Positions 12,925 to 63,962 of a stretch of 64,000 bases of DNA are shown here, piece after piece; within the stretch, counting starts at the first letter, position 1, and each line of letters starts with the position of its first letter. The translations under genes were made by a program, and so were the position numbers. A model generated the notes under the pieces. It did not search any database, was not told where the DNA came from, and worked only from the letters and a program-made list of their open reading frames with translations. The stretch spans positions 16,620 through 80,619 of the forward strand of contig CAZULJ010000004.1 in NCBI GenBank assembly GCA_964621195.1, in the 5' to 3' direction. Origin of the DNA: an uncultured Candidatus Saccharibacteria bacterium. GTDB taxonomy: Bacteria > Patescibacteriota > Dojkabacteria > SC72.

Positions 12925-12943
12925 TACTTACTTATCTCCAAAA

Positions 12944-13399: not shown

Positions 13400-13461
13400 T
13401 TTTGTATATTTATAAATTTAACTTACCTAATATTACCAGCCAAAAATAAAAGATTTCTGAA

Positions 13462-13821
13462 TTAAATCTCAATCTCCTTCTTCTTAATCCTTTTACCAAT
13501 CTCCTCTGGATGATCTGCCTCTACAATCATAAATCTTAAGATCTCTTGCCTTAATTGCAAAAGTCTTTTCATCTCGTTGATTATTGAAGGTGAAGATTTA
13601 AAGTTGTAAACAATATAGTAACCCTCGTTATGACCATTTATCTTGTAGGAAAGATATCTCTTACCCCAAACATCTACATCCAAAACCTCTCCATTTTCTT
13701 TCTCCATCATATCCATAAAATCCTTATGAATACTCTTCCTTAAATCGTCAGGAAGTAATGGCTTCAAAGCAACCATCATCTCATAGTTTCTCATCTTTTT
13801 TACTCTATCTGTTGACATCAA
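13462..13821 (-). CDS. rpsF: 30S ribosomal protein S6
   Basis: YEMMVALKP...GKRYLSYKINGHNEGYYIVYNF. Sits in the classic rpsF-ssb-rpsR order. Confidence 0.85.
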   Translation of the reverse strand: MMSTDRVKKMRNYEMMVALKPLLPDDLRKSIHKDFMDMMEKENGEVLDVDVWGKRYLSYKINGHNEGYYIVYNFKSSPSIINEMKRLLQLRQEILRFMIVEADHPEEIGKRIKKKEIEI

Positions 13822-23688: not shown

Positions 23689-25587
23689 ATGAACATACAA
23701 AGATACCTTAAGATAATTGCAATATTGATCCCATCAATACTACTCTCCATTCCTGCAATATCCTTTGCTGCAGAGCTCGATTCAACAAACTTTAAAATCG
23801 TGGGAGCAACTACTCAAGGGGGGGGAATTGTAGAATCAACATCCGGCAATTACAGTGCCCTACTAAATGTTGGCTCAATCTCTAGTGACCCAAGAATATA
23901 TTCCACCTTGTATAAAGTAGGATCAAGCCCTGAGACACCATTCTTACCATCCGCCCCTATAATTTCATGTTTTGATGCCACCAGCACAAGCCATAGTGAG
24001 TGTTCAATCGGATCCTCTGGGATATCTTCTGCTGGTATGACTAGCCTTTGCGGAGATGGCGGTTGTTATGACAAAGCTAGATTCGAACTATCAGATTACC
24101 CCTATCACTATCAAACAAATGACTCAAGATTGGTTTCTTACTGGCCCATGGATGAACTTGCGAATGATACCTGCGCTGGAGGACAAGATGTCTGTGACCT
24201 AAAAAGTAGCAATCATGGTACTGATTACGGTGCAGGGATTACGACTGGAAGATTCGCAAGGGGCAGAGAGTTCACAGGAGGTACAGACTATTTAGATATG
24301 GGTAATAACTCTTCGCTAGATCTAACCTCACAAGGAACAATATCTGTTTGGGTAAAATCAGATAGGACATACCCTAGCGATGATGCAACAACTAAATTCA
24401 GGTGGATTCTCTACAAAACAAATGGTGGTGGAGTTGGGGAACAAAGTTATTGGTTTGACTGGTATGGAACAAATACTTCAAGAACCTTTAGAGCAAGAAT
24501 CTCTAATGCTGCAGGCGCATCAAATGGTTTTTCAATCTCTAACTATGACATGGGAACAGAGTGGAAACACTTTGTATTAACTTTCGATGGCTCTCTAGTT
24601 AAGTTATTTATAAATGGCACCCTATACGGGAGTGTAACACAAACAATTAGTGCTCAAGTAATAACAGCTCCGGTAAAAATTGGTGGTGCGTATGGATGGG
24701 ACGGATTAATTGACGAGGTAATGATATACAATCAAGCGTTAAGTGACAGTGAAGTAGAAGCTCTCTATCAAGAAACCGCATTAGCTGTAAATCCTGCAGA
24801 CACACTCTACTCTGTTATGATATCTACAGATAACTTTGTATCTGATATTCGATATATCGACTCTTCCACATTTATGCCCGAAAGTATTTCAACCCACAAT
24901 CTTTCCGACTTTATGCCAGAGGATAACTGGGAAGCAGAATTGTTAAACCTAAAGGGATTAGAACCAAATACCACCTACTACCTAAGAGCTGTTGCCCTCC
25001 AAGGATCTTTTACGCAAACAGAACCTGGTCCTGTTCGATCTACTACTACGGGTATCCCAGAAGTATTCTTCGATATAGATATTGCAGATGAATCTGGGTA
25101 TACAGCAGAAAGCTCTCCCCCACACTCTATACAATTTACTGGAGCATATGAACTGATCGGAGGGTCTGCCGCAATTACTGCACAAAATAGAATTTGGTTA
25201 GACGGAAATACCAACTCAAGTGGAGGATACGCCATCATTATGAATGGAACAAATGGTGGTCTATATAGCCCCACCACATTACAGACTATAACCTCGGCGA
25301 CAGCAGATCTTAATGGTGTAAGTTCTGGATTTGGATTACAAAGTGAATATATAGATTACAGTACCGATGGACCAACCCTTGGGTTTATATCCTCAACTAC
25401 AGACTATAGCGGAACAGGTAACGAGGTCGGAATTATTTCTACAACAGCCAACAAAATATATGACGCAGATGGCCCAATTATTGATGGTAGAATGGCATTA
25501 AAAGTGATTGCAAAACCAGGTACCTCATATACTGCTGCCACTGACTATTCAGAGACAATATTCCTAATCTTCGTTCCTAGATATTAA
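23689..25587 (+). CDS. Secreted protein with LamG/concanavalin-A-like lectin domain
   Basis: Signal peptide. YWPMDE...ISVWVK...WKHFVLTFDGSLVKLFINGTLYG...IDEVMIYNQALSDSEVEALY matches the Laminin_G_3 pattern. Confidence 0.6.
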   Translation: MNIQRYLKIIAILIPSILLSIPAISFAAELDSTNFKIVGATTQGGGIVESTSGNYSALLNVGSISSDPRIYSTLYKVGSSPETPFLPSAPIISCFDATSTSHSECSIGSSGISSAGMTSLCGDGGCYDKARFELSDYPYHYQTNDSRLVSYWPMDELANDTCAGGQDVCDLKSSNHGTDYGAGITTGRFARGREFTGGTDYLDMGNNSSLDLTSQGTISVWVKSDRTYPSDDATTKFRWILYKTNGGGVGEQSYWFDWYGTNTSRTFRARISNAAGASNGFSISNYDMGTEWKHFVLTFDGSLVKLFINGTLYGSVTQTISAQVITAPVKIGGAYGWDGLIDEVMIYNQALSDSEVEALYQETALAVNPADTLYSVMISTDNFVSDIRYIDSSTFMPESISTHNLSDFMPEDNWEAELLNLKGLEPNTTYYLRAVALQGSFTQTEPGPVRSTTTGIPEVFFDIDIADESGYTAESSPPHSIQFTGAYELIGGSAAITAQNRIWLDGNTNSSGGYAIIMNGTNGGLYSPTTLQTITSATADLNGVSSGFGLQSEYIDYSTDGPTLGFISSTTDYSGTGNEVGIISTTANKIYDADGPIIDGRMALKVIAKPGTSYTAATDYSETIFLIFVPRY

Positions 25588-25682: not shown

Positions 25683-26804
25683 GTGAGAAGTCTAGGAACT
25701 CTCTTAAGGATAGCGATACCAACATTTTTGATAGTTGGGTTTACCTCATTTTTCATATTCTTTTCTGCACAAGCAGCCTCCCTTACTGCCGTATATATGT
25801 ACTACAGTAGAATTCAAGCTGGACTTAACGGTACTGGTGGGCAAGCAGTACAATTTGTACTAGCAGTTGCACCAGCACAAAATATGGGATCTGGTGGTAC
25901 AATCACAATTGAGTATCCAGATGCAGCCGATGGAACTTGGTGTAGAGGTGCTGGAGCATTAGGAATTTCTGCAGTTGCATCCTCAGAGGCAGACTTGGCA
26001 ATAACATACTGGGATATTGACTCTGCTCTTCCAAACAGTGGTACTGCACTTGCAGCTGCATGTACACAAGGTTCTGGAACAAGCTCGGTAGATACAATAA
26101 CTATTACAAATGTCGGAGCATTAACAGCAGGTACAACATACGGTGTTCAGATTTCTAGCAGCACTGGAGTATTGGGAACCAATGGTACTGCTGGTCAGCA
26201 TGAAATAACTGTAACTGTTGAGAGTGGTGCAACTATTGACTCAAAGACCTTCAAGATTTCATTAGTATCTAATGACTCTGTAGTCGTTAGTGCTACAGTA
26301 TCTGACGCCCCAAGTGTAAACTGTTCAATAAGTACGAATACTGTAAACTTAGGAACCCTTTACCCTGGTGGTGCATATGCAATAGGAACTCATACTATCT
26401 CTACCTCTGCAACTTCTGGATATTACTGGGCTGCATACGGCACGGGAGATGGTTCAACAGATGCTGGTCTTTACAAATCGACCGCCACTACATACTTAAT
26501 AGCATCGGGGACAACTGCAACCTTAGATCTTACAGTCGCTGGTAGTGAAGGTTTCGGAATGACCGTATCAGATCCAGATAGTACTGGTGGCGCCGTAGTA
26601 TCTACAAACTTTGTTGATACAACAGCTGGAACCTTTGGTACACTCGATAGGTTGTATAGTGGAGCAAAGATGATTCTTTCACAAAATGGTGCACAGGGTA
26701 CATCTGAAAATGCTACAATTACATACGGTGCAAGAGCAAGCGCATCAGCACCTGCTGGTTCATACCAAGAAACTGTAACCTTCATTTGTGGTGGTTACTA
26801 CTAG
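25683..26804 (+). CDS. Secreted Gly/Thr/Ser/Ala-rich protein of unknown function
   Basis: N-terminal hydrophobic signal/anchor. Low-complexity T/G/S-rich composition. Part of a same-strand cluster of exported proteins. Confidence 0.4.
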   Translation: MRSLGTLLRIAIPTFLIVGFTSFFIFFSAQAASLTAVYMYYSRIQAGLNGTGGQAVQFVLAVAPAQNMGSGGTITIEYPDAADGTWCRGAGALGISAVASSEADLAITYWDIDSALPNSGTALAAACTQGSGTSSVDTITITNVGALTAGTTYGVQISSSTGVLGTNGTAGQHEITVTVESGATIDSKTFKISLVSNDSVVVSATVSDAPSVNCSISTNTVNLGTLYPGGAYAIGTHTISTSATSGYYWAAYGTGDGSTDAGLYKSTATTYLIASGTTATLDLTVAGSEGFGMTVSDPDSTGGAVVSTNFVDTTAGTFGTLDRLYSGAKMILSQNGAQGTSENATITYGARASASAPAGSYQETVTFICGGYY

Positions 26805-26814
26805 TACTTAGATA

Positions 26815-27777
26815 ATGATATTGAAAATACTTAAGGAATATAACAGAATATTTTTACTGCCCACAATTTTACTCTGTTTAAGTGTGATACCAACATTCGC
26901 ACAGAGTAGTCTTTCAATTGGCGTCTCCCCTACTTCCAAAGTATTAAAAGTTCAACCAGGAGATACATATACTGATGAGGTTGTCTTCTGGAATCTTTCA
27001 CAAGATGCAGACACCTATCAAATCTATGTAAGAGGCTTTAGACAGATAGAGAATCAACCAGGAACAGCAATAATTCTAACCGATGAAGAGGAAGCAAAAT
27101 CTTTGTACTCCGCATCAAAGTGGGTAACACTTGAGAAAGATACTTTAACTCTTGAGCCTAACAAGAATACAAAGCTTAGATATACAATTAATGTTCCTTT
27201 AGATGTTACAGAGGGTGAATACAACGCTCAAATATTTCTAATATCTGAATCTGCAGGAGGAACACAAGGTTCCGTTACATTTGCAAACTTAGCAGCTGGC
27301 ATGCCCCTACTACTTCAGATAGGTGACGAATTTGTAGAGAATGCTGAGCTTCTAAGGTTCACAAGTGACAAGAAGACTTACGAGAAGATAAATATAGATT
27401 TTCTAACACAAATAAAGAATTTAGGAGATACACATATAACACCCACAGGTGAGATTGTAGTAGAAAATATATTTAAACAAGAAGTGGCGAGAATACCATT
27501 CAACAGAAATAGACAAAGCTTACTAAGAGATAATCTAGGCAACTATATAGACAACTGGAGCCAACCAGGATATCTCTCCCCTAACAATGCCCTCGCAATT
27601 GGACCAATGAAGGCTACACTTCTAGTGACATATAGAAGTATACAGCCAGGATTTGCTACTCTCTCTTCTGAGATCTCTTTCTGGATAATTCCTTGGAAGA
27701 TTCTTTTGGCTATTCTCTTACCTATCCTTACTGCTATAATTGTAGTAATAAGTAAGAAAAGACTAAAAAGAAGATAA
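26815..27777 (+). CDS. Cell-surface protein with signal peptide and C-terminal TM anchor plus basic tail. Possibly DUF916-like.
   Basis: Signal peptide. SIGVSPTSKVLKVQPGDTYTDEVVFWNLSQD resembles the N-terminal pattern of WxL-locus DUF916 proteins. The C-terminus is ILLPILTAIIVVISKKRLKRR. Confidence 0.4.
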   Translation: MILKILKEYNRIFLLPTILLCLSVIPTFAQSSLSIGVSPTSKVLKVQPGDTYTDEVVFWNLSQDADTYQIYVRGFRQIENQPGTAIILTDEEEAKSLYSASKWVTLEKDTLTLEPNKNTKLRYTINVPLDVTEGEYNAQIFLISESAGGTQGSVTFANLAAGMPLLLQIGDEFVENAELLRFTSDKKTYEKINIDFLTQIKNLGDTHITPTGEIVVENIFKQEVARIPFNRNRQSLLRDNLGNYIDNWSQPGYLSPNNALAIGPMKATLLVTYRSIQPGFATLSSEISFWIIPWKILLAILLPILTAIIVVISKKRLKRR

Positions 27778-28658
27778 TGAAATTCCTTAAAATATTCTTT
27801 ATATCAATATATCTTTTGATATCCTTCGGTAAAAATACCCTTTATGCAAACACCCTATCGCCTTCTATCAATGAGATAACAGTATCTCAAGGACAAAGAA
27901 CATACTCCACTGTAACTTTTCAAAATGATGGGGAAAAAGACACAGAAGTATTAATAAAGATATATTCATACAATCCTCAAACAGATGAAATATCAGAAAA
28001 TAGTGAGGATCTATTTCTTAAGGCTGACACAGATACATTTTTGATAGAGGCAGGACAGAAGAAAAGCATACAGTACGAAATAGCTCCGATATCAAATATG
28101 GAGTTAGGAACATACTTTAACCTACTCACACTCTTGCCCGAAGCAGACCCAGGAAACGTTTCAATAGCACAGGGGATCTCTCAACTAGTTGTATTAAATC
28201 TAGTATCTGCAGAAGACGAAGTATTGGGTATTACAACGAATGACTTCTCACCCAAAATCGAACTTGTAAGTAAAGGAATACCATATATACTTCCTTTAAA
28301 GATTAGATATATATATGTTAACCAATCAAATTTTGTTTTAACACCCTCTGGTAGGATAGAGGTATTTAACAAGAGGGGTGATTACATGCCAAAATATATA
28401 TATGTAAATCAAGAAGGCGAGAAATTATACCCAGGTGAGCAACTAGAAAAAACCGTTGAGATACATAACTGGCACCTATCAGATCTATTCTCAGACAGAT
28501 ATGTACTGGGAAACTTTACAAATGGTTTGGATAGTAATCCGAAACTTACAGAAATATCCGTACCTTCATATACAATTGAAATATTTGCAGCGCTTGTTGT
28601 ACTAATAGTAGGATATCTCTTTATCAAATCTCTTAGAGAAGACAAAAAGGGATCCTAG
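27777..28658 (+). CDS. Cell-surface protein with signal peptide and C-terminal TM anchor. Paralog-like of the upstream gene.
   Basis: SINEITVSQGQRTYSTVTFQNDGEKDTEVLIKIY has the same pattern as the upstream protein. C-terminal anchor IFAALVVLIVGYLFIKSLREDKK. Its start overlaps the upstream stop. Confidence 0.4.
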   Translation: MKFLKIFFISIYLLISFGKNTLYANTLSPSINEITVSQGQRTYSTVTFQNDGEKDTEVLIKIYSYNPQTDEISENSEDLFLKADTDTFLIEAGQKKSIQYEIAPISNMELGTYFNLLTLLPEADPGNVSIAQGISQLVVLNLVSAEDEVLGITTNDFSPKIELVSKGIPYILPLKIRYIYVNQSNFVLTPSGRIEVFNKRGDYMPKYIYVNQEGEKLYPGEQLEKTVEIHNWHLSDLFSDRYVLGNFTNGLDSNPKLTEISVPSYTIEIFAALVVLIVGYLFIKSLREDKKGS

Positions 28659-43107: not shown

Positions 43108-44259
43108 TTATTTAATAGCTTTTAAGATATCCTCAACTGCTTTCTCACCTATTCCCTTGATCTCTTTCAAATCACCCTTATCCTTCCCAGTCAAATCTTC
43201 TACAGTATGAAGCCCTGCCTCATGTAAAGCTTTCTCTATTCTTGCGGAAAGTCCCAAATCCTCTATCTTTCTAGAATTTGACTCTGCCTTTACTGCCTCA
43301 GCTGCTGCAAAATCTTCTTCAATATTCTTTTCTCTCTTTACAACCCTTACAACACCTGATGTCTGAACATCAGTTTTTCCCTCTCTCATTGCTTTCATTC
43401 TTAATCTATCTTCCTCTTCCATTTTCTCTTGTCTTTCCCTCTCTTCGAGGAATCTAGCCTTCATATTCTTAAGGTTTGCGCCATGATTTGTTCTAAGCGC
43501 TCTCAAAGATTCAGACTTTTTACCACCCTTTATTACCTCTTCAAAAAGAGATATGAAGAGTGAGATACTCTTAATTGAATCATCGTTAGCAGGTATTGCA
43601 TAATCAACTAGATCAGGATCACAGTTGGTATCTATTAATGCTAAAACTGGAATACCTGCAATGATCGCCTCCTTTATTGCGTTCTTCTCCACCTTACTAT
43701 CAATTACCACAAGCATCTTAGGTAATTCATCCATAAACTTGATACCTTCATATACTTTGTTCATTCTTTCTACTTCTCTTTCCATTAAAAGGACCTCTTT
43801 TTTAACGAGATCTCCGCCACCTGAAGCCAAGGTTTCTTCCATCTTTACAAGAGTTTGAATACTCTTCTTAATATGATCAAAGTTTGTAAAAAGACCACCT
43901 GGCCACCTCTTAGTAACATAGAACGCTCCAGAGGATTTCGCACTGCTCTCTACTAGTCCAGCTGCCTGTCCCTTTGTACCAACAATCAATACGTTCCCCG
44001 TATCTACAACAGAATTAAGCTCAGTAAGAGCCTTCTCTAAAAGTTTTCTTGTCTTTACAAGATCAATTATATGAACTCCATTCCTCGTCTCATAGATGAA
44101 TTTTTTCATCTTAGGATTCCATGCGCTAGCCTTGTGTCCAAAGTGTGCACCTGCCTTGAGGAATGTAATTAATTCTGGAATTTCAACTTTAAGGCTTTTC
44201 TTTTCTGTCTCTGCCTTTGGTTTTGCAACCTTCTGTAAGACATTTTTTGTTTCTTCCAT
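43108..44259 (-). CDS. rpsB: 30S ribosomal protein S2, with about 130-aa C-terminal extension containing an HhH motif
   Basis: The S2 core is LKAGAHFGHKASAWNPKMKKFIY...VIDSKVEKNAIKEA. The extension ends in LGLSARIEKALHEAGLHTVEDLTGKDKGDLKEIKGIGEKAVEDILKAIK. Confidence 0.9.
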   Translation of the reverse strand: MEETKNVLQKVAKPKAETEKKSLKVEIPELITFLKAGAHFGHKASAWNPKMKKFIYETRNGVHIIDLVKTRKLLEKALTELNSVVDTGNVLIVGTKGQAAGLVESSAKSSGAFYVTKRWPGGLFTNFDHIKKSIQTLVKMEETLASGGGDLVKKEVLLMEREVERMNKVYEGIKFMDELPKMLVVIDSKVEKNAIKEAIIAGIPVLALIDTNCDPDLVDYAIPANDDSIKSISLFISLFEEVIKGGKKSESLRALRTNHGANLKNMKARFLEERERQEKMEEEDRLRMKAMREGKTDVQTSGVVRVVKREKNIEEDFAAAEAVKAESNSRKIEDLGLSARIEKALHEAGLHTVEDLTGKDKGDLKEIKGIGEKAVEDILKAIK

Positions 44260-47248: not shown

Positions 47249-49267
47249 TTACTCGACTAAACCTGTCTGTACCATCCATAGAATCATTTCCCTCATTACC
47301 GCAGAAGCATTTGAACTCATACCACCATCTTCTAAAAATATTGAAAAGGAATATTTAGGATTCTCATATGGAAAGAAACCACCAACCCAAGCATGAGTAT
47401 CCTCATATATACCTTTCTCGTTTACCTTACCAAACTCTGCGGTACCTGTTTTTGCTGCGACTGTGACACCAGTTCCAGACAATGAACCAACTATACCTCT
47501 AGAACCGTTTACAGTCTCCCACATACCCTTTCTAACAATCTCCAATGCAGATTTTGATACAATGTTTTCTTCCAATATTTCAAACTCCAATGGATATTCC
47601 AAACCATTCCCATCGACAAGTTTCTTAGCAACATGAGGCGTATACAAGGTACCACCATTGGCAATCGCAGCCATCCAGTTTGACATCTGTATTGGAGTAA
47701 CAAGGGTTATACCCTGGCCAATAACAGAGTTACAGGAATCACCCTCTGGATACCATACGGGCTCCAACCAAGGGCTAGTAGTATTCGCCAACTTTATCTT
47801 GTTCTCTGGGGAGGGTAAACGTCCTTTTGCTTCCCCTGGGATATCAATATTGGTATATTCACCAATACCAAATCTTTCTAAATATGGGACTAATTCATCC
47901 ATATCCCAATCTCGGATCATTTCACAAAAGAAAATATTTGATGACACAGCAAGTGCATCTACGACTGTTAGTGATCCATATACATGCTTTCTAAACTCCT
48001 GGAAGGGAGCCCCATTCGAAAAGGTATATCCCGCCCTACTTACATATACTGTATTTTTAGTAATAGCCTTAGAGTCTAGACCTGCAGCCGCTACGATAGT
48101 TTTAAAGGTTGAGCCTGGTGGCATTTGCGCTGCAAGGGCACGGTTTAGGAGAGGATTCTGTTTGTTTTCCAAAATCTTAGAATACTCCTCCTGGGATATC
48201 CCACCAATAAATAGGTTACCGTCGTAGCTTGGGTAGCTTACAATCGCCAGTATCTCCCCACTATTAACATCCTGAATAACTCCCGCTGCCCCTGCCGCAT
48301 TGTTTTTGGTAACAGCATCTGCAAGTAGTTCATATAATTTAACCTGGGCTTCTTTGTTGATAGTTAAATACAAATTGTTACCTGGTACAGGAGCAGACAC
48401 AAGATATGGCTCCTTTGTTACAGATTTACCAAATGCATCTACTTCCTCGGCCAATTGACCATCTTTACCCCTGAATTCTAAATCGTAATACTTCTCAAGC
48501 CCTGATTTACCAACAATATCTCCGGAAGTAAGAACCTCAGAATTCTCAATATCTTCAGCAGATACCTCACCTGTATATCCAAGTATATGAGTAAAATATT
48601 CACCATATAGATAGTGCCTTTTATTTCCGTTATCAATAAGAACACCAGGCATATCAGCCAACCTTGCTTTTATCTTGATAACAGTATCATTGTCTAAGTC
48701 AGTACTTATTAAGATCTTACTAAAATATGGACTCGAGGCATGTATAGAATAAATACGCTCAGAGATAGACTCGTACACGACCCCCTCTTGTGTGTCCTCT
48801 TTCTTCCAATTCTCACCGACAATACCCCCCAGGGTATCAAGACTCTCCTCTAGCATTTTGTTGTCTAAGCCCCCATCCTCAGTAATATATGGCTCCAAGG
48901 AGAGATACAGGTTCATAGAGGCGACGTTCTCTACCAGCTTGTTCCCGTTTATATCAAAAACTATGCCCCTATCAGCTGAAACTTTTGTAAGCCTAATCTT
49001 GTTCCTAGCAGACCTTTCTGCCATCTCCCCTCCCTGTACAATCTGGAGCTTTGTAATAGAAGATATTAACAAACCGAATGTCACAAAAAATATCAAAAAT
49101 GCATACAAGAAGTTCCAAGGAGATACATCCAACACCTTGCTACCATTTAATAGGCCGTTTGAGACATACTCTTTCAAATTAGGGGACTTCCCACTCTTCC
49201 AATTCGAAGTGGCCTTATTCAGCTTCTTACCATTCAATTTTTTATCAAAATTCAAAGAAGTACCCAT
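47249..49267 (-). CDS. mrdA: Penicillin-binding protein 2 (elongation transpeptidase)
   Basis: STFK, SSN, KTGTA motifs. N-terminal TM. Position after mreBCD. Confidence 0.85.
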   Translation of the reverse strand: MGTSLNFDKKLNGKKLNKATSNWKSGKSPNLKEYVSNGLLNGSKVLDVSPWNFLYAFLIFFVTFGLLISSITKLQIVQGGEMAERSARNKIRLTKVSADRGIVFDINGNKLVENVASMNLYLSLEPYITEDGGLDNKMLEESLDTLGGIVGENWKKEDTQEGVVYESISERIYSIHASSPYFSKILISTDLDNDTVIKIKARLADMPGVLIDNGNKRHYLYGEYFTHILGYTGEVSAEDIENSEVLTSGDIVGKSGLEKYYDLEFRGKDGQLAEEVDAFGKSVTKEPYLVSAPVPGNNLYLTINKEAQVKLYELLADAVTKNNAAGAAGVIQDVNSGEILAIVSYPSYDGNLFIGGISQEEYSKILENKQNPLLNRALAAQMPPGSTFKTIVAAAGLDSKAITKNTVYVSRAGYTFSNGAPFQEFRKHVYGSLTVVDALAVSSNIFFCEMIRDWDMDELVPYLERFGIGEYTNIDIPGEAKGRLPSPENKIKLANTTSPWLEPVWYPEGDSCNSVIGQGITLVTPIQMSNWMAAIANGGTLYTPHVAKKLVDGNGLEYPLEFEILEENIVSKSALEIVRKGMWETVNGSRGIVGSLSGTGVTVAAKTGTAEFGKVNEKGIYEDTHAWVGGFFPYENPKYSFSIFLEDGGMSSNASAVMREMILWMVQTGLVE

Positions 49268-49272
49268 ACTTA

Positions 49273-49788
49273 TTATCTCAATCTTATTTTCTCAAAGCTC
49301 CTACTATCTCCTATAGATGAAGATGCTATATCCGCTACAAAGGTTATTAACACAGAAACCACGCTATTTATCACAAACGATAGTACAACAGACGAGGTAA
49401 AAGAAGGCAAAACTTTATCACCTAAAAAGGAATCAAGGGAATATCTCAGGACATATGCCAAAAGAAACACAAAAAAGATAACCAAATACCTTGAGACCCT
49501 ACCCTCGACCGGAACGACATTAGCAACCAAACCAAATGCAGAGAGCCCTAGCCCTGCAACTAATATGCTTATACCGAAATTCGAATGGGCAACAACATCC
49601 AATGCAAGCCCCGCGATTATCAATACCGCAATTACAACCTCAGAACGAATTTTGCCAAAGAAATTCAGCGCAAACAAAAAGTAAAAGGAAAAACTCCCAA
49701 ACGCAACAAAAAGCGAATCAAGAAAGACTAGTATTACGGTAAAGATTGTAATTAAAAAAACTGATAGCATGCTATTTAATCCTAACAA
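49273..49788 (-). CDS. mreD: Rod shape-determining protein MreD (probable)
   Basis: 171-aa polytopic membrane protein between mreC and mrdA. Confidence 0.5.
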   Translation of the reverse strand: MLGLNSMLSVFLITIFTVILVFLDSLFVAFGSFSFYFLFALNFFGKIRSEVVIAVLIIAGLALDVVAHSNFGISILVAGLGLSAFGLVANVVPVEGRVSRYLVIFFVFLLAYVLRYSLDSFLGDKVLPSFTSSVVLSFVINSVVSVLITFVADIASSSIGDSRSFEKIRLR

Positions 49789-50587
49789 ATACAGTAATTA
49801 AATTAGAGTAATCAAAAATTGGAGATACAAAGCCTGACTTAGATGTTGAAGCAAGATTTTTGGATAAACTGACCAATCGGCCCAATGTAAGTAGCTCCCC
49901 AATCCTTTCATCTCTTAATACAACTAGGTCACCATCCGAGACCTCTGCATTTATACCAATATTTTCTATCTTAATACCCTCAAGTGTCCCAGCGACAACC
50001 CCCTTAGACTTAATATATGAATCCAATGGGGACTCTACAGTGTACTCTTGCGAGAGAACTACTACCTCGTAACTACTCGCCCTATTTGTAGGCAAACGAA
50101 CAGCAGATCCATTTAAATCGACTTCTGAACAAACACCAACAAAGACACCTCCAACATATACGATATCACCCTCCGAGACACCATCAATAGATCCGACATT
50201 TATATATACAACCCCATCCTCCGACTCCCCTAAAACCTTCGCCATGAGAGATTTAGAATCACTGTTCAACAAAGAGCTGCTAGACTTAAGTGCTGAGTAC
50301 TCTTCTTGATCAATGGGGCTAAATGTTGAAGCTTTAAGCTGTATTAGCTCATCCCGGAGCATTTCGTGCTCCTCTATATATGAGGATGCATCTAGGAGTG
50401 CACTTCCCCAACCAGATATTGAATTCCCAATATTGTACCCACTTGAAGAAACAGGTTCAAACACATATGCAAAAAACGATCTAAAAGGAGAAACAATATT
50501 AAAGTAAGAAAGAAGGACGAAAACAACCCCTACCGGAATTAACAAAAGATATTGATATGATTTTATCTTCGAAATTGGGTTTGTCAT
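49772..50587 (-). CDS. mreC: Rod shape-determining protein MreC (probable)
   Basis: N-terminal TM, a coiled-coil region and a beta-rich C-terminus, immediately downstream of mreB. Confidence 0.6.
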   Translation of the reverse strand: MTNPISKIKSYQYLLLIPVGVVFVLLSYFNIVSPFRSFFAYVFEPVSSSGYNIGNSISGWGSALLDASSYIEEHEMLRDELIQLKASTFSPIDQEEYSALKSSSSLLNSDSKSLMAKVLGESEDGVVYINVGSIDGVSEGDIVYVGGVFVGVCSEVDLNGSAVRLPTNRASSYEVVVLSQEYTVESPLDSYIKSKGVVAGTLEGIKIENIGINAEVSDGDLVVLRDERIGELLTLGRLVSLSKNLASTSKSGFVSPIFDYSNLITVFVRIK

Positions 50588-50598
50588 TTAAAAAGGTC

Positions 50599-51654
50599 TT
50601 AAATAAGCTCTTCCCAGGATTTTTGGACTTTTTGTAACAGGTCTATATGATCAAGCATAGAGGCTGTTCCCCTTGCAACAGCTGAAAGTGGATCCTCAAC
50701 AATCTTAACTGGGATATTCAACTCCTCCATCCAGAATTTATCCAACCCCTTAATCAATGCCCCCCCACCTGCAACATGTATACCGTCATTGTATATATCT
50801 TTTAAAAGCTCCGGAGGAGTATCTTCAATAGCATCTTTAACAGCTTCAGTTATTTGAGTCAAAGAAACCATAATTGCTTCACGAACCTCTATACTACTGA
50901 AGTTAACAGACTTTGGTAGGCCTGTTAACAGATCTCTACCTTGAATTACAACCTCTTTCTCTTCCTTCATTGGAGATGCTGACCCTATTTCTATCTTTAC
51001 ATCTTCAGCAGTTCTTTCACCAATTAAAATATTGTATTTATCACGGACATAATTAACTACATCTATATTCATCTCATCTCCCGCAATTCTAATAGTATTG
51101 TCTACAACAATATCACCCAAGGAAAGTACAGCAATTCCAGTAGTACCACCACCGATATCAACAATCATGCTTCCAGAGGCCTCTTCAATTGGCAATCCAA
51201 CACCAATAGCTGCTGCCATAGACTCTTCAACTATAAAAACTTCACGAGCGCCAGCAGTCTTTGCAGCATCAATTACCGCCTGCCTTTCGACTTCAGTAAC
51301 GGAAGAAGGGACTCCAACAACAACCCTTGGTCTTGGTATTTTAAAACCCTTAACATAGTTGCTGTGAGCACTGTTAATAAAGTGGTGAATCATTGCCTGT
51401 GTGGTATCGAAGTCTGAGATAACACCATCTCTTAAAGGTCTTACAGCCACAATATTCGCAGGCGTTCTACCAATCATCTCCCTAGCCTTTTGCCCAACAG
51501 CCAGCACCTGTTTGCTCCTCTTATCGATTGCTACAACAGATGGTTCTGAAACGACAATGTCTTCGCCACGCAAATATACCATTGTATTTGCAGTACCAAG
51601 GTCTATACCAAGATCGTATGTAAATATTTCCCAAAGGGAATCAAATACTGACAT
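50599..51654 (-). CDS. mreB: Rod shape-determining protein MreB
   Basis: Actin-fold motifs LGIDLGTANT, VVGVP, DIGGGTT. Confidence 0.9.
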   Translation of the reverse strand: MSVFDSLWEIFTYDLGIDLGTANTMVYLRGEDIVVSEPSVVAIDKRSKQVLAVGQKAREMIGRTPANIVAVRPLRDGVISDFDTTQAMIHHFINSAHSNYVKGFKIPRPRVVVGVPSSVTEVERQAVIDAAKTAGAREVFIVEESMAAAIGVGLPIEEASGSMIVDIGGGTTGIAVLSLGDIVVDNTIRIAGDEMNIDVVNYVRDKYNILIGERTAEDVKIEIGSASPMKEEKEVVIQGRDLLTGLPKSVNFSSIEVREAIMVSLTQITEAVKDAIEDTPPELLKDIYNDGIHVAGGGALIKGLDKFWMEELNIPVKIVEDPLSAVARGTASMLDHIDLLQKVQKSWEELI

Positions 51655-56573: not shown

Positions 56574-56858
56574 ATGGCAACCAAAACCGACAACAAATGC
56601 AAAGGCTGCGATCGCTCAGGTGAAGAGTGCTTGGGGTGTACATCCGATTTAGATGCATCCGAGCTTCTCGAAATATTCCTCGGGGAAAAAAGTGAGGAAG
56701 AGCAGATTCAATTTTTCGTAGAAATACTTAAAGTTGGACCTCAAGATGCAGCAGATTTGCTGACATCCTTCCTCGGAAAAAGAACCGAAAGTGAGCAAGT
56801 TGAATTCTTCGAGCGATTGCTAGAGAAGGAGGGGTTAGGACCAATCGATATCGAATAG
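56574..56858 (+). CDS. Small acidic Cys-motif protein with an internal tandem repeat, inserted between rplA and rplJ
   Basis: AAGGAG SD 8 nt before the ATG. 94 aa. CKGC-x7-CLGC. Two roughly 29-aa repeats, ELLEIFLGEKSEEEQIQFFVEILK and DLLTSFLGKRTESEQVEFFERLLEK, with conservative substitutions. Local GC is above the window average. Confidence 0.4.
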   Translation: MATKTDNKCKGCDRSGEECLGCTSDLDASELLEIFLGEKSEEEQIQFFVEILKVGPQDAADLLTSFLGKRTESEQVEFFERLLEKEGLGPIDIE

Positions 56859-58058: not shown

Positions 58059-58088
58059 AAGAGGTCTTGAAAAAGACCTCTTTTTTTT
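58059..58088 (+). terminator. Strong rho-independent terminator after rplL
   Basis: AAGAGGTCTT-GAAA-AAGACCTCTT followed by TTTTTTTT. Confidence 0.75.
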
Positions 58089-58167
58089 CCCACGGCTATA
58101 TTCGACAATGAATACCAAGACAAAGTATAATGTGGCGGATATATTCTAATTTTTCAGAATATTAAAA

Positions 58168-58833
58168 ATGTTTGATACAACAAGCTTAACACAGTGGGTT
58201 TTAGATCATGGAGTCCCCCCTACTGCATTAGAGCTACTAATGGCAATTTCTGTATTAGCGACTGTGGTAAGTATCGCAAGATATGTCATAGGTTCAAAAA
58301 CATATGGCATATATGCACCAATACTTCTCGCAATCGCATATTCATATACAGGGTTAAAATACGGACTTTCAGTAACACTACTAGTCATTCTTACCTCTTT
58401 AATCTCCTACAGCATACTTAAAAAGATTAGAATGCACTACTTAACTAGAATCGCTACCAACTACACGATACTCTCAATGTTACTAATCCTCTTCTTTGTA
58501 TTAATAGATCGATTTGGACTAGGATTGGACAATATGCATAATATTCCCCCTCTCGCATTCATATCAATAGCTGCACTCTCTGACTTCTTTATCAAACAGT
58601 ATGTAAAGAAATCACTTGAAGGATCTTTACTCACACTCTTTGGAACAATAACTGTTGCAATAGTTGGTTGGTTTGTAATATCTAGAGAAATAATCTCGGA
58701 ATATTTGATCCTAAATCTATGGATACTACCCGTACTAACAATCGTAAATATCCTACTAGGACAATTTACAGGGTTAAGAATCAGAGACTATTTCAGATTT
58801 AGACTAAGCAACAAAGATGACTCTAGCAATTAA
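58168..58833 (+). CDS. Seven-TM integral membrane protein, first gene of the ATP-grasp operon
   Basis: 221 aa. I count seven hydrophobic helices of about 20 aa each. Cytoplasmic basic tail RIRDYFRFRLSNK. The stop overlaps the next gene. Confidence 0.55.
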   Translation: MFDTTSLTQWVLDHGVPPTALELLMAISVLATVVSIARYVIGSKTYGIYAPILLAIAYSYTGLKYGLSVTLLVILTSLISYSILKKIRMHYLTRIATNYTILSMLLILFFVLIDRFGLGLDNMHNIPPLAFISIAALSDFFIKQYVKKSLEGSLLTLFGTITVAIVGWFVISREIISEYLILNLWILPVLTIVNILLGQFTGLRIRDYFRFRLSNKDDSSN

Positions 58834-60295
58834 CAATAGGTATAGCCAAATATTAGGCTTAAACCGAAGGAATCAAGAGTATGTGAGACCATACAATCCT
58901 CCTTCTGCCAAAGCTATTGCTGACAATAAAATACTAACAAAGAGAGTCCTAAAGAAAGAGTTAATACAAACACCGGAGGTCTACAAACTTGTAAGAACCA
59001 AAAAGCAATTACAATTTTTAGATTGGGATAGCTTACCAAAAAGCTTTGTTATAAAGCCCAACAAAGGAACAGGTGGAAATGGAATAATCGTATTCTACGG
59101 AAAGAAAAAAGGACAAGATGCATGGATAAGACCAAATGGATCAGTTATGACAAAGAGAGATATAATTCTTCATATAGAAAATATACTAGAGGGTAGATTC
59201 TCGATGGGTTCTCGTAACGACATTGCTATCATAGAGGAAAGAATTAAGACAGATTCCCTACTAAAGCAGTACTCATACAAAGGCGTTCCAGATATTAGAA
59301 TAATCTGCTTCAACGAGGTTCCCGTAATGGCTATGCTAAGATTACCAACTAAAAGATCTAATGGTACTGCAAATCTGCACTCGGGCGCAATATGTACAGG
59401 TATAGACTTAGAATCAGGTATTACGACCTACTCTATGCATATGAAGGCCTCTGCCTTTAGAACAGATTCCTACAAGCTTGTAGACTCAACCTTAGATCTT
59501 CAAGAGAATAAACCTCTAAGTGGTATTCAAATACCGTACTGGAACGAGATGTTAGAAATCGCACTTAAATGCCAGAAAGCAAGTAAACTCGGATACCTTG
59601 GTGTAGACATCGCAATAGATGCAGAAAAGGGCCCTGTTGTATTTGAAATAAATGCTAGACCAGGCCTCGGAATACAAGTAGCGAACCAAGCTGGTCTTAG
59701 ATGGAGGTTAGAGAAAGTAAAGGACCTGAATATAAAGAGTATAAAACATGGGATTAGAGTCGCAAAGAATCTCTTCGGAGGAGAAATTGAGGAAAATATT
59801 GAAGCTATCAGTGGTAGAAAGGTACTCAACATAGTTGAAAAAGTTACCCTCTTTAACAAAGGGACCGAGATAAGCAAGATTAAGAAGGCAAAGAAAATGC
59901 AAAAGGAAATAGTAAAGGCCTTCATGGACACCGGGATACTGACATCCAGAATCTCTTCCATACTTGCAAACAGGATAGGTTTTCTAAAAGCTGGGAAAGA
60001 TTTTGAGTCTTTAGATGTACCAAAAAGATTTGGAAGTTTCAAAGAAGCACAGGACTACATGGATAAGTATGAAAAGGATATCTGTACACGATACCCTGAT
60101 ATAAAAAGACTTGCTAAGATCTTAGAAGATGGAGAAATAAAAATAAGACCAGTATTTGAGATACCCATTAAAATATCTGACTCTATAAAAATAACAGAGT
60201 TTGTATCTACAGATTCCAAAGAAAATCTCTACCCAGTTGTCATAGGTAGGGCTGAACTATCCGGTTTCCTTATCGATACAAGTAATACATTCTAA
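58817..60295 (+). CDS. ATP-grasp amidoligase, RimK-related / sugar-transfer-associated ATP-grasp-like, with about 170-aa C-terminal extension
   Basis: FVIKPNKGTGGNGIIVF (ATP-grasp B-loop region)...LGYLGVDIAIDAEKGPVVFEINARPGL (C-terminal Mg/ATP motif). 492 aa. Confidence 0.6.
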   Translation: MTLAINNRYSQILGLNRRNQEYVRPYNPPSAKAIADNKILTKRVLKKELIQTPEVYKLVRTKKQLQFLDWDSLPKSFVIKPNKGTGGNGIIVFYGKKKGQDAWIRPNGSVMTKRDIILHIENILEGRFSMGSRNDIAIIEERIKTDSLLKQYSYKGVPDIRIICFNEVPVMAMLRLPTKRSNGTANLHSGAICTGIDLESGITTYSMHMKASAFRTDSYKLVDSTLDLQENKPLSGIQIPYWNEMLEIALKCQKASKLGYLGVDIAIDAEKGPVVFEINARPGLGIQVANQAGLRWRLEKVKDLNIKSIKHGIRVAKNLFGGEIEENIEAISGRKVLNIVEKVTLFNKGTEISKIKKAKKMQKEIVKAFMDTGILTSRISSILANRIGFLKAGKDFESLDVPKRFGSFKEAQDYMDKYEKDICTRYPDIKRLAKILEDGEIKIRPVFEIPIKISDSIKITEFVSTDSKENLYPVVIGRAELSGFLIDTSNTF

Positions 60296-60314: not shown

Positions 60315-61292
60315 ATGAAAACATACGAAGAATATTTACAAGAAGCAGGTAATGTACATCTAGCCTACTACGTTGAAGCTGCAGATACGCTGGGCATAAA
60401 GTATGAGATCGTAAAAAGATCCCTTCTAGCAAAATTTTCAAACGATACGAAACATTGGTTCATAATTAATACTGCTACACCTCTTACCAATACAACAAGT
60501 ACTACAATTGCTAAGAGAAAAAACCTAACAAACGAGATCCTGTACAAGGCTGGGATACCAGTACCAAGGCAAGTTGTTTTAAGAAATAAAAATGAAGCTA
60601 TAAAGTTTTTTGAAGAGTACAAAACCATAGTCATCAAACCCTCTCAACAATTGGGAGGGAATGGTGTGACCTTACTACCAAAAGATAAAGGACAGGTAAT
60701 AAAGGCATTTAAAAGTGCAGATAAGTCTTCAAAGGCAAAAGATGAGAACAGAGTAATTGGAGAAGAATTCATAGAAGGAGAAAACTACAGATTCCTAGTA
60801 GTAGGAGATTCTGTTGTAGGCATTGTGAGAAGAAAGGCAGCTTTTGTGGTTGGAGATGGAAATAACAGTATTAAAAAATTAATAGAGGAGAAAAACAGAG
60901 AGAGAAAGAGTAACCTACTTAAGCCAATCCCTATAGATACTGAAGTTAAATTAAGATTAGAGAATCTTAAAATAAATCTCAATACCGTGCCAAGTGAAGG
61001 CGAAGAAGTTATACTTAGATACAACTGTAACCTAAGTACTGGTGGTACAACACAGGAGTGTTCATCCCAAGTACATGAATACTACAAAGAGATTGCCGTC
61101 AGTGCTGTGAAAGCAATTGGAACAGTATTTGGGGGAGTCGATATAATTACTCCAGATATTACACAACCTGCAAAATGCGGAGTAAATGAAATAAACTACA
61201 ATCCAGGTCTAAGACTACACTACAAAGTAGATGAAGGAGAGGCAGTAAAGGTTGCAATACCAATAATGGAATATATATCAAAAAATATTTAA
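60315..61292 (+). CDS. ATP-grasp ligase, cyanophycin-synthetase-like
   Basis: IVIKPSQQLGGNGV...ENYRFLVVGDSVVGIVRRKAAFVVGDGNNSIKKLIEEKN...NLSTGGT...GVDIITPDI...VNEINYNPGL parallels the CphA ATP-grasp domain. Confidence 0.6.
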   Translation: MKTYEEYLQEAGNVHLAYYVEAADTLGIKYEIVKRSLLAKFSNDTKHWFIINTATPLTNTTSTTIAKRKNLTNEILYKAGIPVPRQVVLRNKNEAIKFFEEYKTIVIKPSQQLGGNGVTLLPKDKGQVIKAFKSADKSSKAKDENRVIGEEFIEGENYRFLVVGDSVVGIVRRKAAFVVGDGNNSIKKLIEEKNRERKSNLLKPIPIDTEVKLRLENLKINLNTVPSEGEEVILRYNCNLSTGGTTQECSSQVHEYYKEIAVSAVKAIGTVFGGVDIITPDITQPAKCGVNEINYNPGLRLHYKVDEGEAVKVAIPIMEYISKNI

Positions 61293-61309: not shown

Positions 61310-63007
61310 ATGTTTAAAACATTACAAGGTTTAAATCTAGAGTCCCAGTATACAACTGTAAAAATATCATTAGAAGGATCAAATATTGGAGAGATAACAA
61401 AACTTCTTGATCAAATAAGTTCCTTCCACCCTATCTTTCTCTATGAATATATCCTCTCTCCGAAGGAACTTTCAATACGTTCAAAATTACCTGAAATATG
61501 GAGAGAAGCTGCTAATACACTCAACCAACTCTCAAAAGAGGAAATAAAATATGAAGATGCTCATGATATTCTGGTCAATACAATCATCTCAAAGAGGGTT
61601 AAATCAATGTCTACCATACCAATACTACACGCTGCTCACCAAAAGAATATCGAAACGAACTTAGCAGTATTGAGCAAATCAATAGTAGATGGATACGATT
61701 TAGGATACAACAGTACATTTAATAGATACTATGTACTTGGGTGTGGTAAGGGTTCCTCAGTTACCGTTTCAGTAGGATCATCAAAAGATTCAACCTACGG
61801 ATTTAAGATCCAAAGAGATAAATGGACAACAAACAGAATAATAGATAGATTGTGTCTGCCACTTCCTAAGTGGGAAGTAATAAATTCAGAAGAACATCTA
61901 GAGAAAGTTTGGGATAACTATGCAAAACCTTTAGTAATCAAGCCAACAGGTTTAACAGGAGGAAAAGGAGTAAGTGTAGGAATTAAAACACTTGAAGAAG
62001 CAAAGATGGCATTCAAAAGGGCAAAGAAAGATACAGATAGTAAGATAAGATCTCCCTGGCAAACAAAGATAATGATCCAAGAGCAAGTAAAAGGAGAAGA
62101 CTATCGACTACTCGTTGTAAATGGAAAGCTTGAGATTGCCACTAAAAGAATCCCTGCGTTTGTTGAAGGTGATGGAAAAAAGACTATCGAAAAATTAATA
62201 GAGGAAACAAACAAAGATCCAAGAAGGGATATAAAAAATCCGACCCATATACTAAAGCCAATAATCATAGATGAGCCACTTCTCGAACTACTAGAAAAGA
62301 ATGGCTTAACTCTTAAATCTATTCCAGAAAAAGGTTCAAGAGTATATGTAAGAAACATTGCAAGCATGAGCCAAGGAGGTATAACAGAGGACTTTACTGA
62401 TGAGGTAAGTAAAGAAATTAAACTTCTAGTTGAAAGTATTGCACAATCAATACATGCATTCACACTAGGTGTTGATGTGATTTGCCAAGATATTACTAAA
62501 CCATTAACCAAGGAGAATGGTGCTATCTTAGAAATTAACACAATGCCCGAAGCATACCTGAATTTCTTTCCAGTAATTGGTAAACAAAGAGGATACGTTG
62601 CAGATACTTTTGTAGAGGGCTTACTCTCTGAGAATAAGTGTAAAAAGATAGTTGTTGTAGGACAAAGCATTAGCGATATCCCTACGAACTTAAGAAGATG
62701 GTGGAAGATTAAGAACGAAGATACTGTAGGAGAAATTGTAGAAGATCGTTACTACATAAACGGTATGCAAATAAATGAAGATCTAGAAAGAATACAGGCA
62801 TTTGAAGCTATAAAATGTAATGCTTCACTAGATGTAATAATTCTCCATCATAGAGACTGGAATGATGTTGCCGAATTTGGACTAGGATTTGATCATATAG
62901 ATACCCTTCTCATAACCAAAGAAGAGGCAAAGGACAGAGAAAAAGTAAAATTGATGAAGAAGTATAGAGGTATGAAATTAATAAATAAAATAGAGATAAT
63001 CTCCTAA
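61310..63007 (+). CDS. ATP-grasp ligase, cyanophycin-synthetase N-terminal-like. The C-terminal region lacks a Mur-ligase P-loop.
   Basis: LVIKPTGLTGGKGVSVG...EDYRLLVVNGKLEIATKRIPAFVEGDGKKTIEKLIEETNKDPRRD...SMSQGGIT...GVDVICQDI...ILEINTMPEAY. 565 aa. Confidence 0.65.
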   Translation: MFKTLQGLNLESQYTTVKISLEGSNIGEITKLLDQISSFHPIFLYEYILSPKELSIRSKLPEIWREAANTLNQLSKEEIKYEDAHDILVNTIISKRVKSMSTIPILHAAHQKNIETNLAVLSKSIVDGYDLGYNSTFNRYYVLGCGKGSSVTVSVGSSKDSTYGFKIQRDKWTTNRIIDRLCLPLPKWEVINSEEHLEKVWDNYAKPLVIKPTGLTGGKGVSVGIKTLEEAKMAFKRAKKDTDSKIRSPWQTKIMIQEQVKGEDYRLLVVNGKLEIATKRIPAFVEGDGKKTIEKLIEETNKDPRRDIKNPTHILKPIIIDEPLLELLEKNGLTLKSIPEKGSRVYVRNIASMSQGGITEDFTDEVSKEIKLLVESIAQSIHAFTLGVDVICQDITKPLTKENGAILEINTMPEAYLNFFPVIGKQRGYVADTFVEGLLSENKCKKIVVVGQSISDIPTNLRRWWKIKNEDTVGEIVEDRYYINGMQINEDLERIQAFEAIKCNASLDVIILHHRDWNDVAEFGLGFDHIDTLLITKEEAKDREKVKLMKKYRGMKLINKIEIIS

Positions 63008-63008
63008 C

Positions 63009-63962
63009 ATGAAATATTTAATAATTGATAAAAGACAGAGGGTTGAAACCGGGAATGAGGATAAAATTGCAACTGCCAACTTAAGAATAATTGAAGAATT
63101 GGACAAGAAAGATATACCCTACTCTCTTGTATACAATGATGAAATAGAGTTTCAAATAATCGATAGTGAAACATCGATATTTGTAAAAGGCGAAGATATA
63201 CGAGAATATACTCATATACTGTTTAGAGGACATGCTTTACATAACGAAATTGAGTATCAATATAAAAGATATATCATCGATTACATAGATCAATATAACC
63301 TAAAAAATCCAAAAGAAAGGATATTAATACAAAATAGCGAAGCAATAAAAACCCTTCCATATTACAATAAAATAGCACTCGGTTTGTTCTGTTCTCAAAA
63401 TGACATCCCCTACTTCAATACCTATTACAGAACAGACGGCAACTATATTGCACACAGAACGACCCTAGAGACATACCCCGTCATAATGAAAGAGTATTCC
63501 GGGGCAAATAGAGTTGAAATTATTGATGGAAAAGAAAAAATTAAAAAGAATGTATTTAAGATAACTCACGAAGATGATTACAGGCAGGAAGGATTACAAG
63601 GCCAGGACCACTCTAGGTTCTTTATACAGGAGTTCTCGGATAGTGGTATGGATATCAGAATATTCGTAAAATTGGGCAAGGTAATTGCTGGATGGAAGAG
63701 GAAAGCGACCGAAGGTTTCATGACCGTAAAGGACGGAGAATACTCCATGTACAACAACCCAGAGAAGGCCGATAAAGAACTTGCAGAGAATGTTGCACAG
63801 AAACTCAATGCGGATTTTATTGCTGTAGATCTTATGTATCTCAACAACAAACCATTACTACAGGAAGTTAGTTATCATCCAGGATTTAAAGCTTACGAAA
63901 CAAAGATCGAAGGAGAACCAGTAAATATTGCAGAGGCAATTATAACTGCCTTTAAAGGATAG
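63009..63962 (+). CDS. ATP-grasp ligase, RimK/glutathione-synthetase-like
   Basis: FIQEF...GMDIRIFVKLGKVIAGWKRKATEGF...ADFIAVDLMYLNNKPLLQEVSYHPGFKAY parallels RimK (LVQEY...[25 protein letters not shown]...LDVAGVDIL...LVMEVNASPGL). Confidence 0.6.
   Translation: MKYLIIDKRQRVETGNEDKIATANLRIIEELDKKDIPYSLVYNDEIEFQIIDSETSIFVKGEDIREYTHILFRGHALHNEIEYQYKRYIIDYIDQYNLKNPKERILIQNSEAIKTLPYYNKIALGLFCSQNDIPYFNTYYRTDGNYIAHRTTLETYPVIMKEYSGANRVEIIDGKEKIKKNVFKITHEDDYRQEGLQGQDHSRFFIQEFSDSGMDIRIFVKLGKVIAGWKRKATEGFMTVKDGEYSMYNNPEKADKELAENVAQKLNADFIAVDLMYLNNKPLLQEVSYHPGFKAYETKIEGEPVNIAEAIITAFKG

Follow-up and report, generated by a model that had tools for sequence, protein, structure and literature searches.

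What does a cyanophycin synthetase-like ligase do when its Mur ligase-like domain has lost the active site? This question is raised by a gene of a Dojkabacteria genome that lies in a 64,000-nucleotide stretch of contig CAZULJ010000004.1 (the whole of this stretch is referred to below as the window). The gene product, P4, is a protein of 565 aa encoded by the plus-strand open reading frame (ORF) 61310-63007. Taking all evidence together, we see roughly even chances that P4 is an active peptide-bond-forming ATP-grasp ligase which serves in a multi-ligase system that builds and trims a peptide or poly-amino acid. New here are the CphA2-like architecture in an independent, lineage-restricted clade, its invariant pocket, and the system of four ligases and two peptidases to which it belongs.

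Profiles and structure alignments divided P4 into an N domain, a complete ATP-grasp G domain and a tail of 120 aa, as follows.

61310..61774, plus strand: P4 residues 1-155, CphA-type N domain (about 1-95) and pre-grasp segment, without the Cx19HxxEH motif
61775..62641, plus strand: P4 residues 156-444, ATP-grasp G domain with invariant core and the clade-specific pocket S352/E414/Y416/Q257
62642..63007, plus strand: P4 residues 445-565 and stop codon, Mur ligase-like M core remnant

The NCBIfam profile PRK14016 matched P4 at 2.6e-73 (query 142-541 on profile positions 186-577 of 871), a match that spans beyond the ATP-grasp and reaches the start of the M domain, and TIGR02068 matched at 9.6e-72. 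The closest solved relative by sequence was CphA1 7lg5 (1.9e-45, query 156-535 on chain 205-579), and the ATP-grasp motifs GDGKKTIEKLIEETNKDPRRD of P4 align on GDGSSTISELIEKTNQDPNRGDG of CphA1. An AlphaFold model of P4 reached a predicted local distance difference test score (pLDDT) of 91.2 and a predicted template modelling score of 0.87. When the whole chain was submitted to Foldseek, the best match was CphA2 7ta5 (E 4.6e-39, 598 columns, TMq 0.71, TMt 0.68), and CphA1 structures also matched over the whole chain. These whole-chain fold matches confirm the presence of the N domain, and the sequence alignment of some CphA1 representatives extends N-terminally to P4 residue 62-88. The initial annotation, which had proposed an N domain and a conserved ATP-grasp in this CphA-like ORF, is thus borne out by the profiles (1e-72 to 1e-73), by 7lg5 (1.9e-45) and by the fold. 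In 83% of CphA1s the N domain carries an optional primer-generating site with the motif Cx19HxxEH (PMC9262961). No HxxEH was found in residues 1-155 of P4, and a hydrolase function of its N domain was therefore rejected.

The same annotation had described the C-terminal tail as lacking a P-loop, and this was also found to be correct. The tail is the counterpart of the first ~120 of the ~385 M core residues (CphA1 ~489-610), that is, of the first third of the M domain of CphA1; P4 has no Mlid, and the chain stops near CphA1 residue 610. The homology to the CphA1 M core was established by hidden Markov model alignment through residue 535-541 and by fold matches. Within the tail, the segment KKIVVVGQSISDI aligns on CphA1 IPILAVTGTNGKTT, where the Walker-A position is present in degenerate form: the P-loop region of P4 reads GQSISDI, whereas the Walker-A of CphA1 is GTNGKT. 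Among 78 family members, only G451 is fixed in the former P-loop (TeCphA1 G495-T501) while the remainder varies, and the position of the P-loop Lys is occupied by D, K, E, P or N. Furthermore, the Mg ligands T522 and E558 are replaced in the P4 family by D/E/N and by H, respectively, and the motif GxxGK[ST] occurs in no member. The GLGF motif was retained at residues 524-527 (CphA1 568-571). The truncated M domain of CphA2 is inactive and part of the dimer interface (PMC10273328; PMC9427784). In the AlphaFold model, the P4 tail is predicted to be a compact alpha/beta domain and is the most confident part of the protein (pLDDT 95-97). The mean column entropy of the tail (1.64 bits) was close to that of the N domain (1.79 bits), with 1.09 bits for the G domain, yet the former P-loop was hypervariable; we therefore regard the tail as a structural remnant rather than an ATP site. 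Since it aligns to the CphA1 M core, the idea that it represents an unrelated complete domain was rejected, and since the functional motifs are absent, it is not a functional member of the Mur ligases. Together, the alignments to CphA1 and CphA2 identify the tail as a derived M-domain remnant without the function of a Mur ligase domain.

In ATP-grasp cores, Lys residues serve the ATP phosphates, two acids and an Asn bind Mg, and an Arg (Arg309) stabilises the acylphosphate. We examined these residues in P4 and in P3, the product of ORF 60315-61292. The latter matches CphA at 3.9e-67 and is the stand-alone CphA-like ATP-grasp that had been annotated directly upstream of P4. Residue numbers of CphA1 refer to TeCphA1, with residue roles as described previously (PMC9427784). 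The P4 core residues K171, K211, R266, R280, D389, E408 and N410 were invariant in 78/78 orthologs, and the same core (CphA1 K220, K261, R309, R323, D431, E450 and N452) was invariant in all 74 P3 orthologs, showing that neither paralog has the active site of a pseudoenzyme. Conceivably, P4 could nonetheless be a decaying or pseudo-enzymatic CphA1 remnant without a catalytic role of its own, as it has lost the M catalytic motifs and the Mlid, lacks His267 and has Gly456 replaced. We consider this hardly credible, because not only the residues for ATP, Mg and acylphosphate but also the pocket signature described below are invariant, the model is of high confidence, and about 80 species, whose genomes measure roughly 0.6-0.8 Mb, have retained the gene. 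In addition, almost all of the 77 orthologs, which come from about 80 species-level genomes, have a length of 556-572 aa, and no frameshifts were found.

The two ligases differ in the pocket for the incoming unit. In CphA1, N394, R323 and R458 position the incoming aspartate, while G456 aids oxyanion stabilisation (PMC9427784); moreover, the activity of the G domain needs His267, as a H267A mutant was inactive (PMC9427784, PMC9262961). The corresponding positions are occupied as follows.

N394 position: N in all CphA1 representatives and in P3 (N239, 74/74); S352 in P4 (78/78); N in CphA2 8fxh and 7ta5
G456 position: G in all CphA1 representatives and in P3 (G298, 74/74); E414 in P4 (78/78); G in CphA2 8fxh and 7ta5
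R458 position: R in all CphA1 representatives and in P3 (R300, 73/74); Y416 in P4 (77/78); Y or F in CphA2 8fxh and 7ta5
E300 position: E in all CphA1 representatives and in P3; mostly Q257 in P4
His267 position (P-loopG): Gly or Ala in P4 (G/A217); Gly in P3; His retained in CphA2 8fxh

The combination S/E/Y in P4, as opposed to N/G/R in P3, makes different substrates for the two enzymes plausible, and we read both as active ligases that would take different incoming units. The earlier proposal that each paralog adds a different residue is therefore plausible in view of these invariant, distinct pockets. A cyanophycin-like product, in contrast, is not indicated. The acid that binds the Arg branch of cyanophycin (CphA1 E215, CphA2 D212) was not conserved in P3, and its position varies between K, E, N, T, M and D in the P4 family; the chain extended by P3 and P4 is probably not Arg-decorated cyanophycin. 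P3 and P4 share 32% identity, each being as distant from the other as from CphA1, and by this measure they are not recent paralogs.

The layout of P4 is not unprecedented. An N domain, a G domain and a truncated, inactive M domain are already known in exactly this arrangement from CphA2 (PMC10273328), and the initial suggestion that P4 follows a logic different from that of canonical CphA proteins cannot be upheld in this form. Could P4 then simply be a CphA2? Like 7ta5 and 8fxh, it combines a non-catalytic N domain with one catalytic G domain and an M domain that is truncated and has neither P-loop nor Mlid; 7ta5 is its best fold match, and both have an aromatic residue at R458. Some databases indeed annotate P4 as cyanophycin synthetase. 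Judged by alignment, P4 and CphA2, a polymerase of the dipeptide beta-Asp-Arg, have both lost the Arg that clamps the carboxylate of free Asp, and P4 alone adds two more changes. Genuine CphA2 keeps N394, G456, the P-loopG His and the Arg-binding acid (D212/E215), whereas P4 invariantly has S, E and G/A at the first three positions, does not conserve the acid in its family, and has an M stub that is about 30 aa shorter. The likeness of P4 to CphA1 (7lg5, 7wac) is likewise partial: the G domains are homologous throughout, the tail lies on the M core including GLGF, and the N-domain fold is shared, but P4 lacks the M active site, the Mlid and Cx19HxxEH, its triad has become S/E/Y and its His267 Gly or Ala. 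By sequence, P4 was closer to CphA1, with 158.7 bits including part of the M core, than to CphA2, with 134 bits and a match to the G domain only.

In a neighbour-joining tree of G domains, the P4 clade and four near-outgroup representatives were grouped outside CphA1 with 100% bootstrap support. The position of CphA2 was tested in a distance-based neighbour-joining tree of 163 G-domain columns, in which 7ta5 was represented only in part (residues 288-450) from the PDB alignments; CphA2 (GcCphA2) was sister to the P4 clade in only 4 out of 100 bootstraps, and the three lineages were equidistant at about 40-42% identity. Furthermore, CphA2 has been described as a cyanobacterial enzyme (PMC10206079) and occurs in cyanobacteria together with cphA1 and cyanophycinase, whereas P4 is found in Dojkabacteria with three other ligases. 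Neither cphA1 nor genes for cyanophycinase or isoaspartyl dipeptidase turned up in the conserved neighbourhood or, within the 64-kb window, among its larger ORFs, although whole genomes were not searched, and a search of the available literature yielded no paper linking Dojkabacteria or the Candidate Phyla Radiation to cyanophycin or to the P4 cluster. It is therefore very unlikely that P4 is a plain CphA2. Orthology to CphA2 is not supported, and P4 appears to represent a separate, Dojkabacteria-restricted clade.

Many other CphA1-like proteins of 600-800 aa keep N/G/R without having the M-domain Walker-A (P0169, P0195, P0202, P0233, P0240 and P0253). Three P-loop-less representatives (P0260, P0206 and P0228) were considered as CphA2 and rejected, as they were closer to CphA1. 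Since many P-loop-less CphA-like proteins exist, and the three that were tested are not CphA2, loss of the M active site seems recurrent, and inactivation or truncation of the M domain appears to be widespread beyond the cyanobacterial CphA2. The CphA scaffold has thus apparently shed its Mur-type active site more than once, and in P4 a strictly conserved new pocket is found on a CphA2-like layout.

P4 does not stand alone. On the plus strand between 54.6 and 64 kb of the window, the genes nusG, rplK, rplA, rplJ and rplL are followed by the five tightly packed genes P1-P5, which overlap by up to 17 nt or lie at most 19 nt apart.

58059..58082, plus strand: terminator-like hairpin, 10-bp stem followed by a T run, directly 3′ of rplL
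58102..58131, plus strand: promoter-like site, TCGACA-18-TATAAT, 11/12 matches, 37 nt 5′ of P1, the best of the region
58168..58833, plus strand: P1, 221-aa seven-transmembrane (7TM) protein, PF14402 7TM_transglut, resembling the membrane part of RloB
58817..60295, plus strand: P2, 492-aa RloC-like ATP-grasp fused to a C-terminal retropepsin-like domain
60315..61292, plus strand: P3, 325-aa stand-alone CphA G-domain-like ATP-grasp without N or M domain
63009..63962, plus strand: P5, 317-aa RimK-like ATP-grasp, PF08443

P1 matched PF14402 at 2e-17 and contains no transglutaminase-like domain. A 612-aa Transglut_core protein is encoded elsewhere in the window (15098-16936, plus strand) and may be relevant, since P1 lacks this domain of RloB. 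In P2, the ATP-grasp (ATPgrasp_ST/TIGR02291) covers residues 8-303, scoring 279.6 bits against a TIGR02291 cut-off of 314.2, and the retropepsin-like domain (RloA/RimB-like) covers residues ~363-492 with its DTG at 371-373. P3 matched the CphA profile over positions 165-470. P5 scored 46.5 bits with TIGR00768, below the cut-off of 143.4, and 36.6 with Pfam RimK, above the cut-off of 21; by the TIGR00768 threshold it is RimK-like only and would not be counted as a RimK family member. The tight junctions, together with the terminator-like hairpin and the promoter-like site after rplL, make P1-P5 look like an operon of their own. Promoter-like sites were no more numerous in this region than in shuffled sequence, and the site at 58102..58131 is to be taken as a consensus match only. 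With the terminator and promoter-like site in between, and with gene insertions at this point in other genomes, co-transcription with rplJL is unlikely. The P1-P5 operon comprises about 5.8 kb, to which one peptidase gene is added.

This peptidase, a MATCAP/DUF1704 metallopeptidase with the motifs HEVGTH and EEGLA, is encoded convergently, on the minus strand, just past the end of the window (12654-13820 of locus L001). Directly upstream of it and on the same strand lies a second mreB paralog (13842-14858 of L001). The canonical mreB (50599-51654), mreC (49772-50587) and a gene for a PBP2-type transpeptidase (47249-49267) are all on the minus strand of the window, so that two MreB paralogs are encoded within about 15 kb of the genome. 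Between rplA and rplJ, a short ORF (56574-56858, plus strand) would encode an acidic product of 94 aa with the internal repeat SEEEQIQFFVEILK / TESEQVEFFERLLEK and the end ...IDIE. It was rejected as a conserved partner because weak matches were found in only 3/80 loci, and it may be no gene.

To what extent is this cluster conserved? At 90% clustering, the P4 family has more than 400 detectable homologs, and the best 120 are 54-74% identical and about 562-572 aa long. In a library of representatives at 50%, about 11 clusters showed the full P4 architecture, followed by a sharp drop in score to other CphA-like proteins. A scan of species-representative genomes yielded 80 loci, essentially all of which were labelled Dojkabacteria/WS6 or generic Patescibacteria-type. 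Counted only in loci long enough to judge, and in the same order and orientation, the partners were found beside P4 as follows.

P1, 7TM protein: 61/62 loci
P2, RloC-like ligase with retropepsin-like domain: 65/66 loci
P3, G-only ligase: 74/74 loci
P5, RimK-like ligase: 69/71 loci
Convergent PF08014/MATCAP-like peptidase (TIGR02421-like): 56/57 loci
Second mreB paralog, with the MATCAP-like peptidase directly 3′ of it: 53/53 Dojkabacteria loci

The conserved unit thus contains four ATP-grasp ligases, a 7TM protein and two peptidases, and the two-enzyme split originally envisaged for P3 and P4 has to be abandoned. Both peptidases retain their motifs: HExxxH was found in 56/58 and EGLA in 57/58 of the MATCAP-like proteins, and the DTG of the P2 retropepsin in 61/67. 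A more distant lineage with the S/E/Y signature has, in this order, the 7TM, RloC-like, G-only and RimK-like genes, the MATCAP-like gene on the opposite strand and the P4 homolog, while rplJL is divergent and mreB is missing. On one contig, the G-only, RimK-like, MATCAP-like and P4-type genes were found together with no others of the set. These rearranged clusters indicate that the ligases and the MATCAP-like peptidase form a linked core with mreB outside it, and mreB was rejected as part of the system because it is missing from the rearranged clusters of the sister lineage. Outside the window, proteins P0133-P0143, P0159 and others, of 1400-2400 aa, carry two or three CphA-G-like modules, fused to AMP-binding, acylphosphatase, LPG_synthase_C, TPR or PGA_cap domains; in P0133, a G module and a P-loop-less M-core module adjoin PGA_cap. 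Such giant natural fusions indicate that CphA-G-like ligases do work in multi-ligase assemblies.

The partners of P4 resemble known ligase-protease modules. P1 would correspond to the 7TM part of RloB, and P2 to the RloC ATP-grasp plus the RloA retropepsin, of the rloABC system of Pseudomonas aeruginosa (PMC12239564), while P5 is comparable to RimK. The differences are that no transglutaminase-like domain is present in P1, that the retropepsin forms one chain with a cytoplasmic ligase instead of being secreted, that the P4 cluster has two CphA-type ligases and a MATCAP-like peptidase in addition, and that rlo is mainly reported from Proteobacteria. Proteases of the rlo system prefer acidic substrates, and the effect of losing them is relieved when the ligase or the 7TM protein is deleted as well (PMC12239564). 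The convergent downstream gene belongs to the PF08014 family with HExxxH and EGLA, as do MATCAP and the TIGR02421 'QEGLA' proteins, and scores 124 bits, short of the NCBIfam cut-off of 339. The eukaryotic MATCAP reverses the action of the ATP-grasp ligase TTL by trimming the tail of a cytoskeletal protein. The P4 cluster therewith ties cyanophycin-type ligases to the rlo/Rim-type ligase-protease modules of Pseudomonas and Vibrio.

With these relatives in mind, the cluster could be a system for tailing and trimming protein C termini, in which residues attached to a protein substrate by P3, P4, P5 and P2 are taken off again by the two peptidases, as RimK and RimB do on S6 or TTL and MATCAP on tubulin. 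The RimK-like ligase, the RimB/RloA-like retropepsin domain and the MATCAP-family peptidase with its intact HExxxH would fit such a role, RimB is known to trim poly-Glu tails (PMC12239564), and the cluster adjoins rplJ-rplL in both lineages and the second mreB paralog in Dojkabacteria. However, the C termini of MreB2, L10 and the cluster proteins showed no conserved tail, be it acidic or distinctive in another way, the short acidic ORF that precedes rplJ lacks conservation (3/80 loci), and mreB adjacency is lost in the sister lineage. The cluster is also set apart from rplJL, with a terminator and a promoter-like site in between and with genes frequently inserted there. In addition, the characterised CphA enzymes with an N domain, CphA1 and CphA2, act on free polymer, and the 7TM partner would be left unexplained. 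We therefore regard protein tailing as rather unlikely, if less so than the alternatives discussed above.

Under the reading that we prefer, a ligase acting on a peptide or poly-amino acid, the P4 G domain would be the single catalytic site, phosphorylating the C-terminal (or side-chain) carboxylate of the chain and joining it to the incoming amine as in CphA. The Mur-like stub of 120 aa would bind no ATP and, like the truncated M domain of CphA2, act as a folded element for structure or oligomerisation, and the non-hydrolytic N domain probably stabilises P4 or holds the chain. P4 would act in the conserved operon together with the ligases P3 (CphA-G-like), P5 (RimK-like) and P2 (RloC-like). 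Because the aspartate-binding triad is kept, P3 may incorporate Asp or a similar amino acid. In P4, the Arg for the Asp alpha-carboxylate has been lost, as in CphA2, and a pocket Glu has been gained; P4 may therefore add or polymerise another kind of unit, probably a bulkier or cationic one, for example a dipeptide or a basic residue. Additional residues, probably acidic ones, may come from P5 and P2, the product would be trimmed or recycled by the retropepsin and the MATCAP-like enzyme, and the 7TM protein P1 could link the process to the membrane.

Several observations weigh against this reading. The absence of His267 from both P4 and P3 means that the chemistry may differ from that of CphA or be slower. 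The N-x-x-P-G motif is near-universal in ATP-grasp enzymes, and P4 has Glu for its Gly. As the acid that binds the Arg branch is not conserved, a primer of the cyanophycin type is unlikely. The deep branches of the tree lack resolution, and the 7TM/RloC pair is not adjacent in locus L090. Finally, that P2, P5 and the 7TM protein contribute to a shared product is assumed from gene linkage only.

Two further features of the window lie apart from the cluster. Ribosomal protein S2 (43108-44259, minus strand; 383 aa) has an unusual C-terminal fusion to an RNA polymerase alpha C-terminal domain/helix-hairpin-helix region (PF03118, 4.6e-14). Consecutive ORFs of 293-458 aa at 25683-28658 and 10116-12486 had no Pfam match at 1e-5; next to them, ORF 23689-25587 encodes a Laminin_G_3 (concanavalin-like) protein of 632 aa, a setting that suggests lineage-specific surface proteins.

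What would the P4 system mean for these organisms? The six cluster genes occupy about 1% of a roughly 0.7-Mb genome, and essentially all Dojkabacteria species examined have retained them. Considering this cost and the near-universal retention, the product is probably important to these uncultured organisms, and the compact cluster is suited to heterologous expression for its identification. As a more tentative proposal, which we regard as possible but on balance doubtful, Dojkabacteria and a sister lineage may make a new poly-amino acid or branched peptide wholly with ATP-grasp ligases. In such a cyanophycin-like assembly, the Mur-type side-chain ligase would have been replaced by the re-specialised G-type P4 working with the Asp-type P3, and the RimK- and RloC-like ligases, the 7TM protein and the two peptidases would serve in decoration, export or turnover. 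If true, these ultra-small symbionts could be using the product as a storage or envelope polymer of their own, and its identification might reveal what the rlo-type operons of Proteobacteria make.

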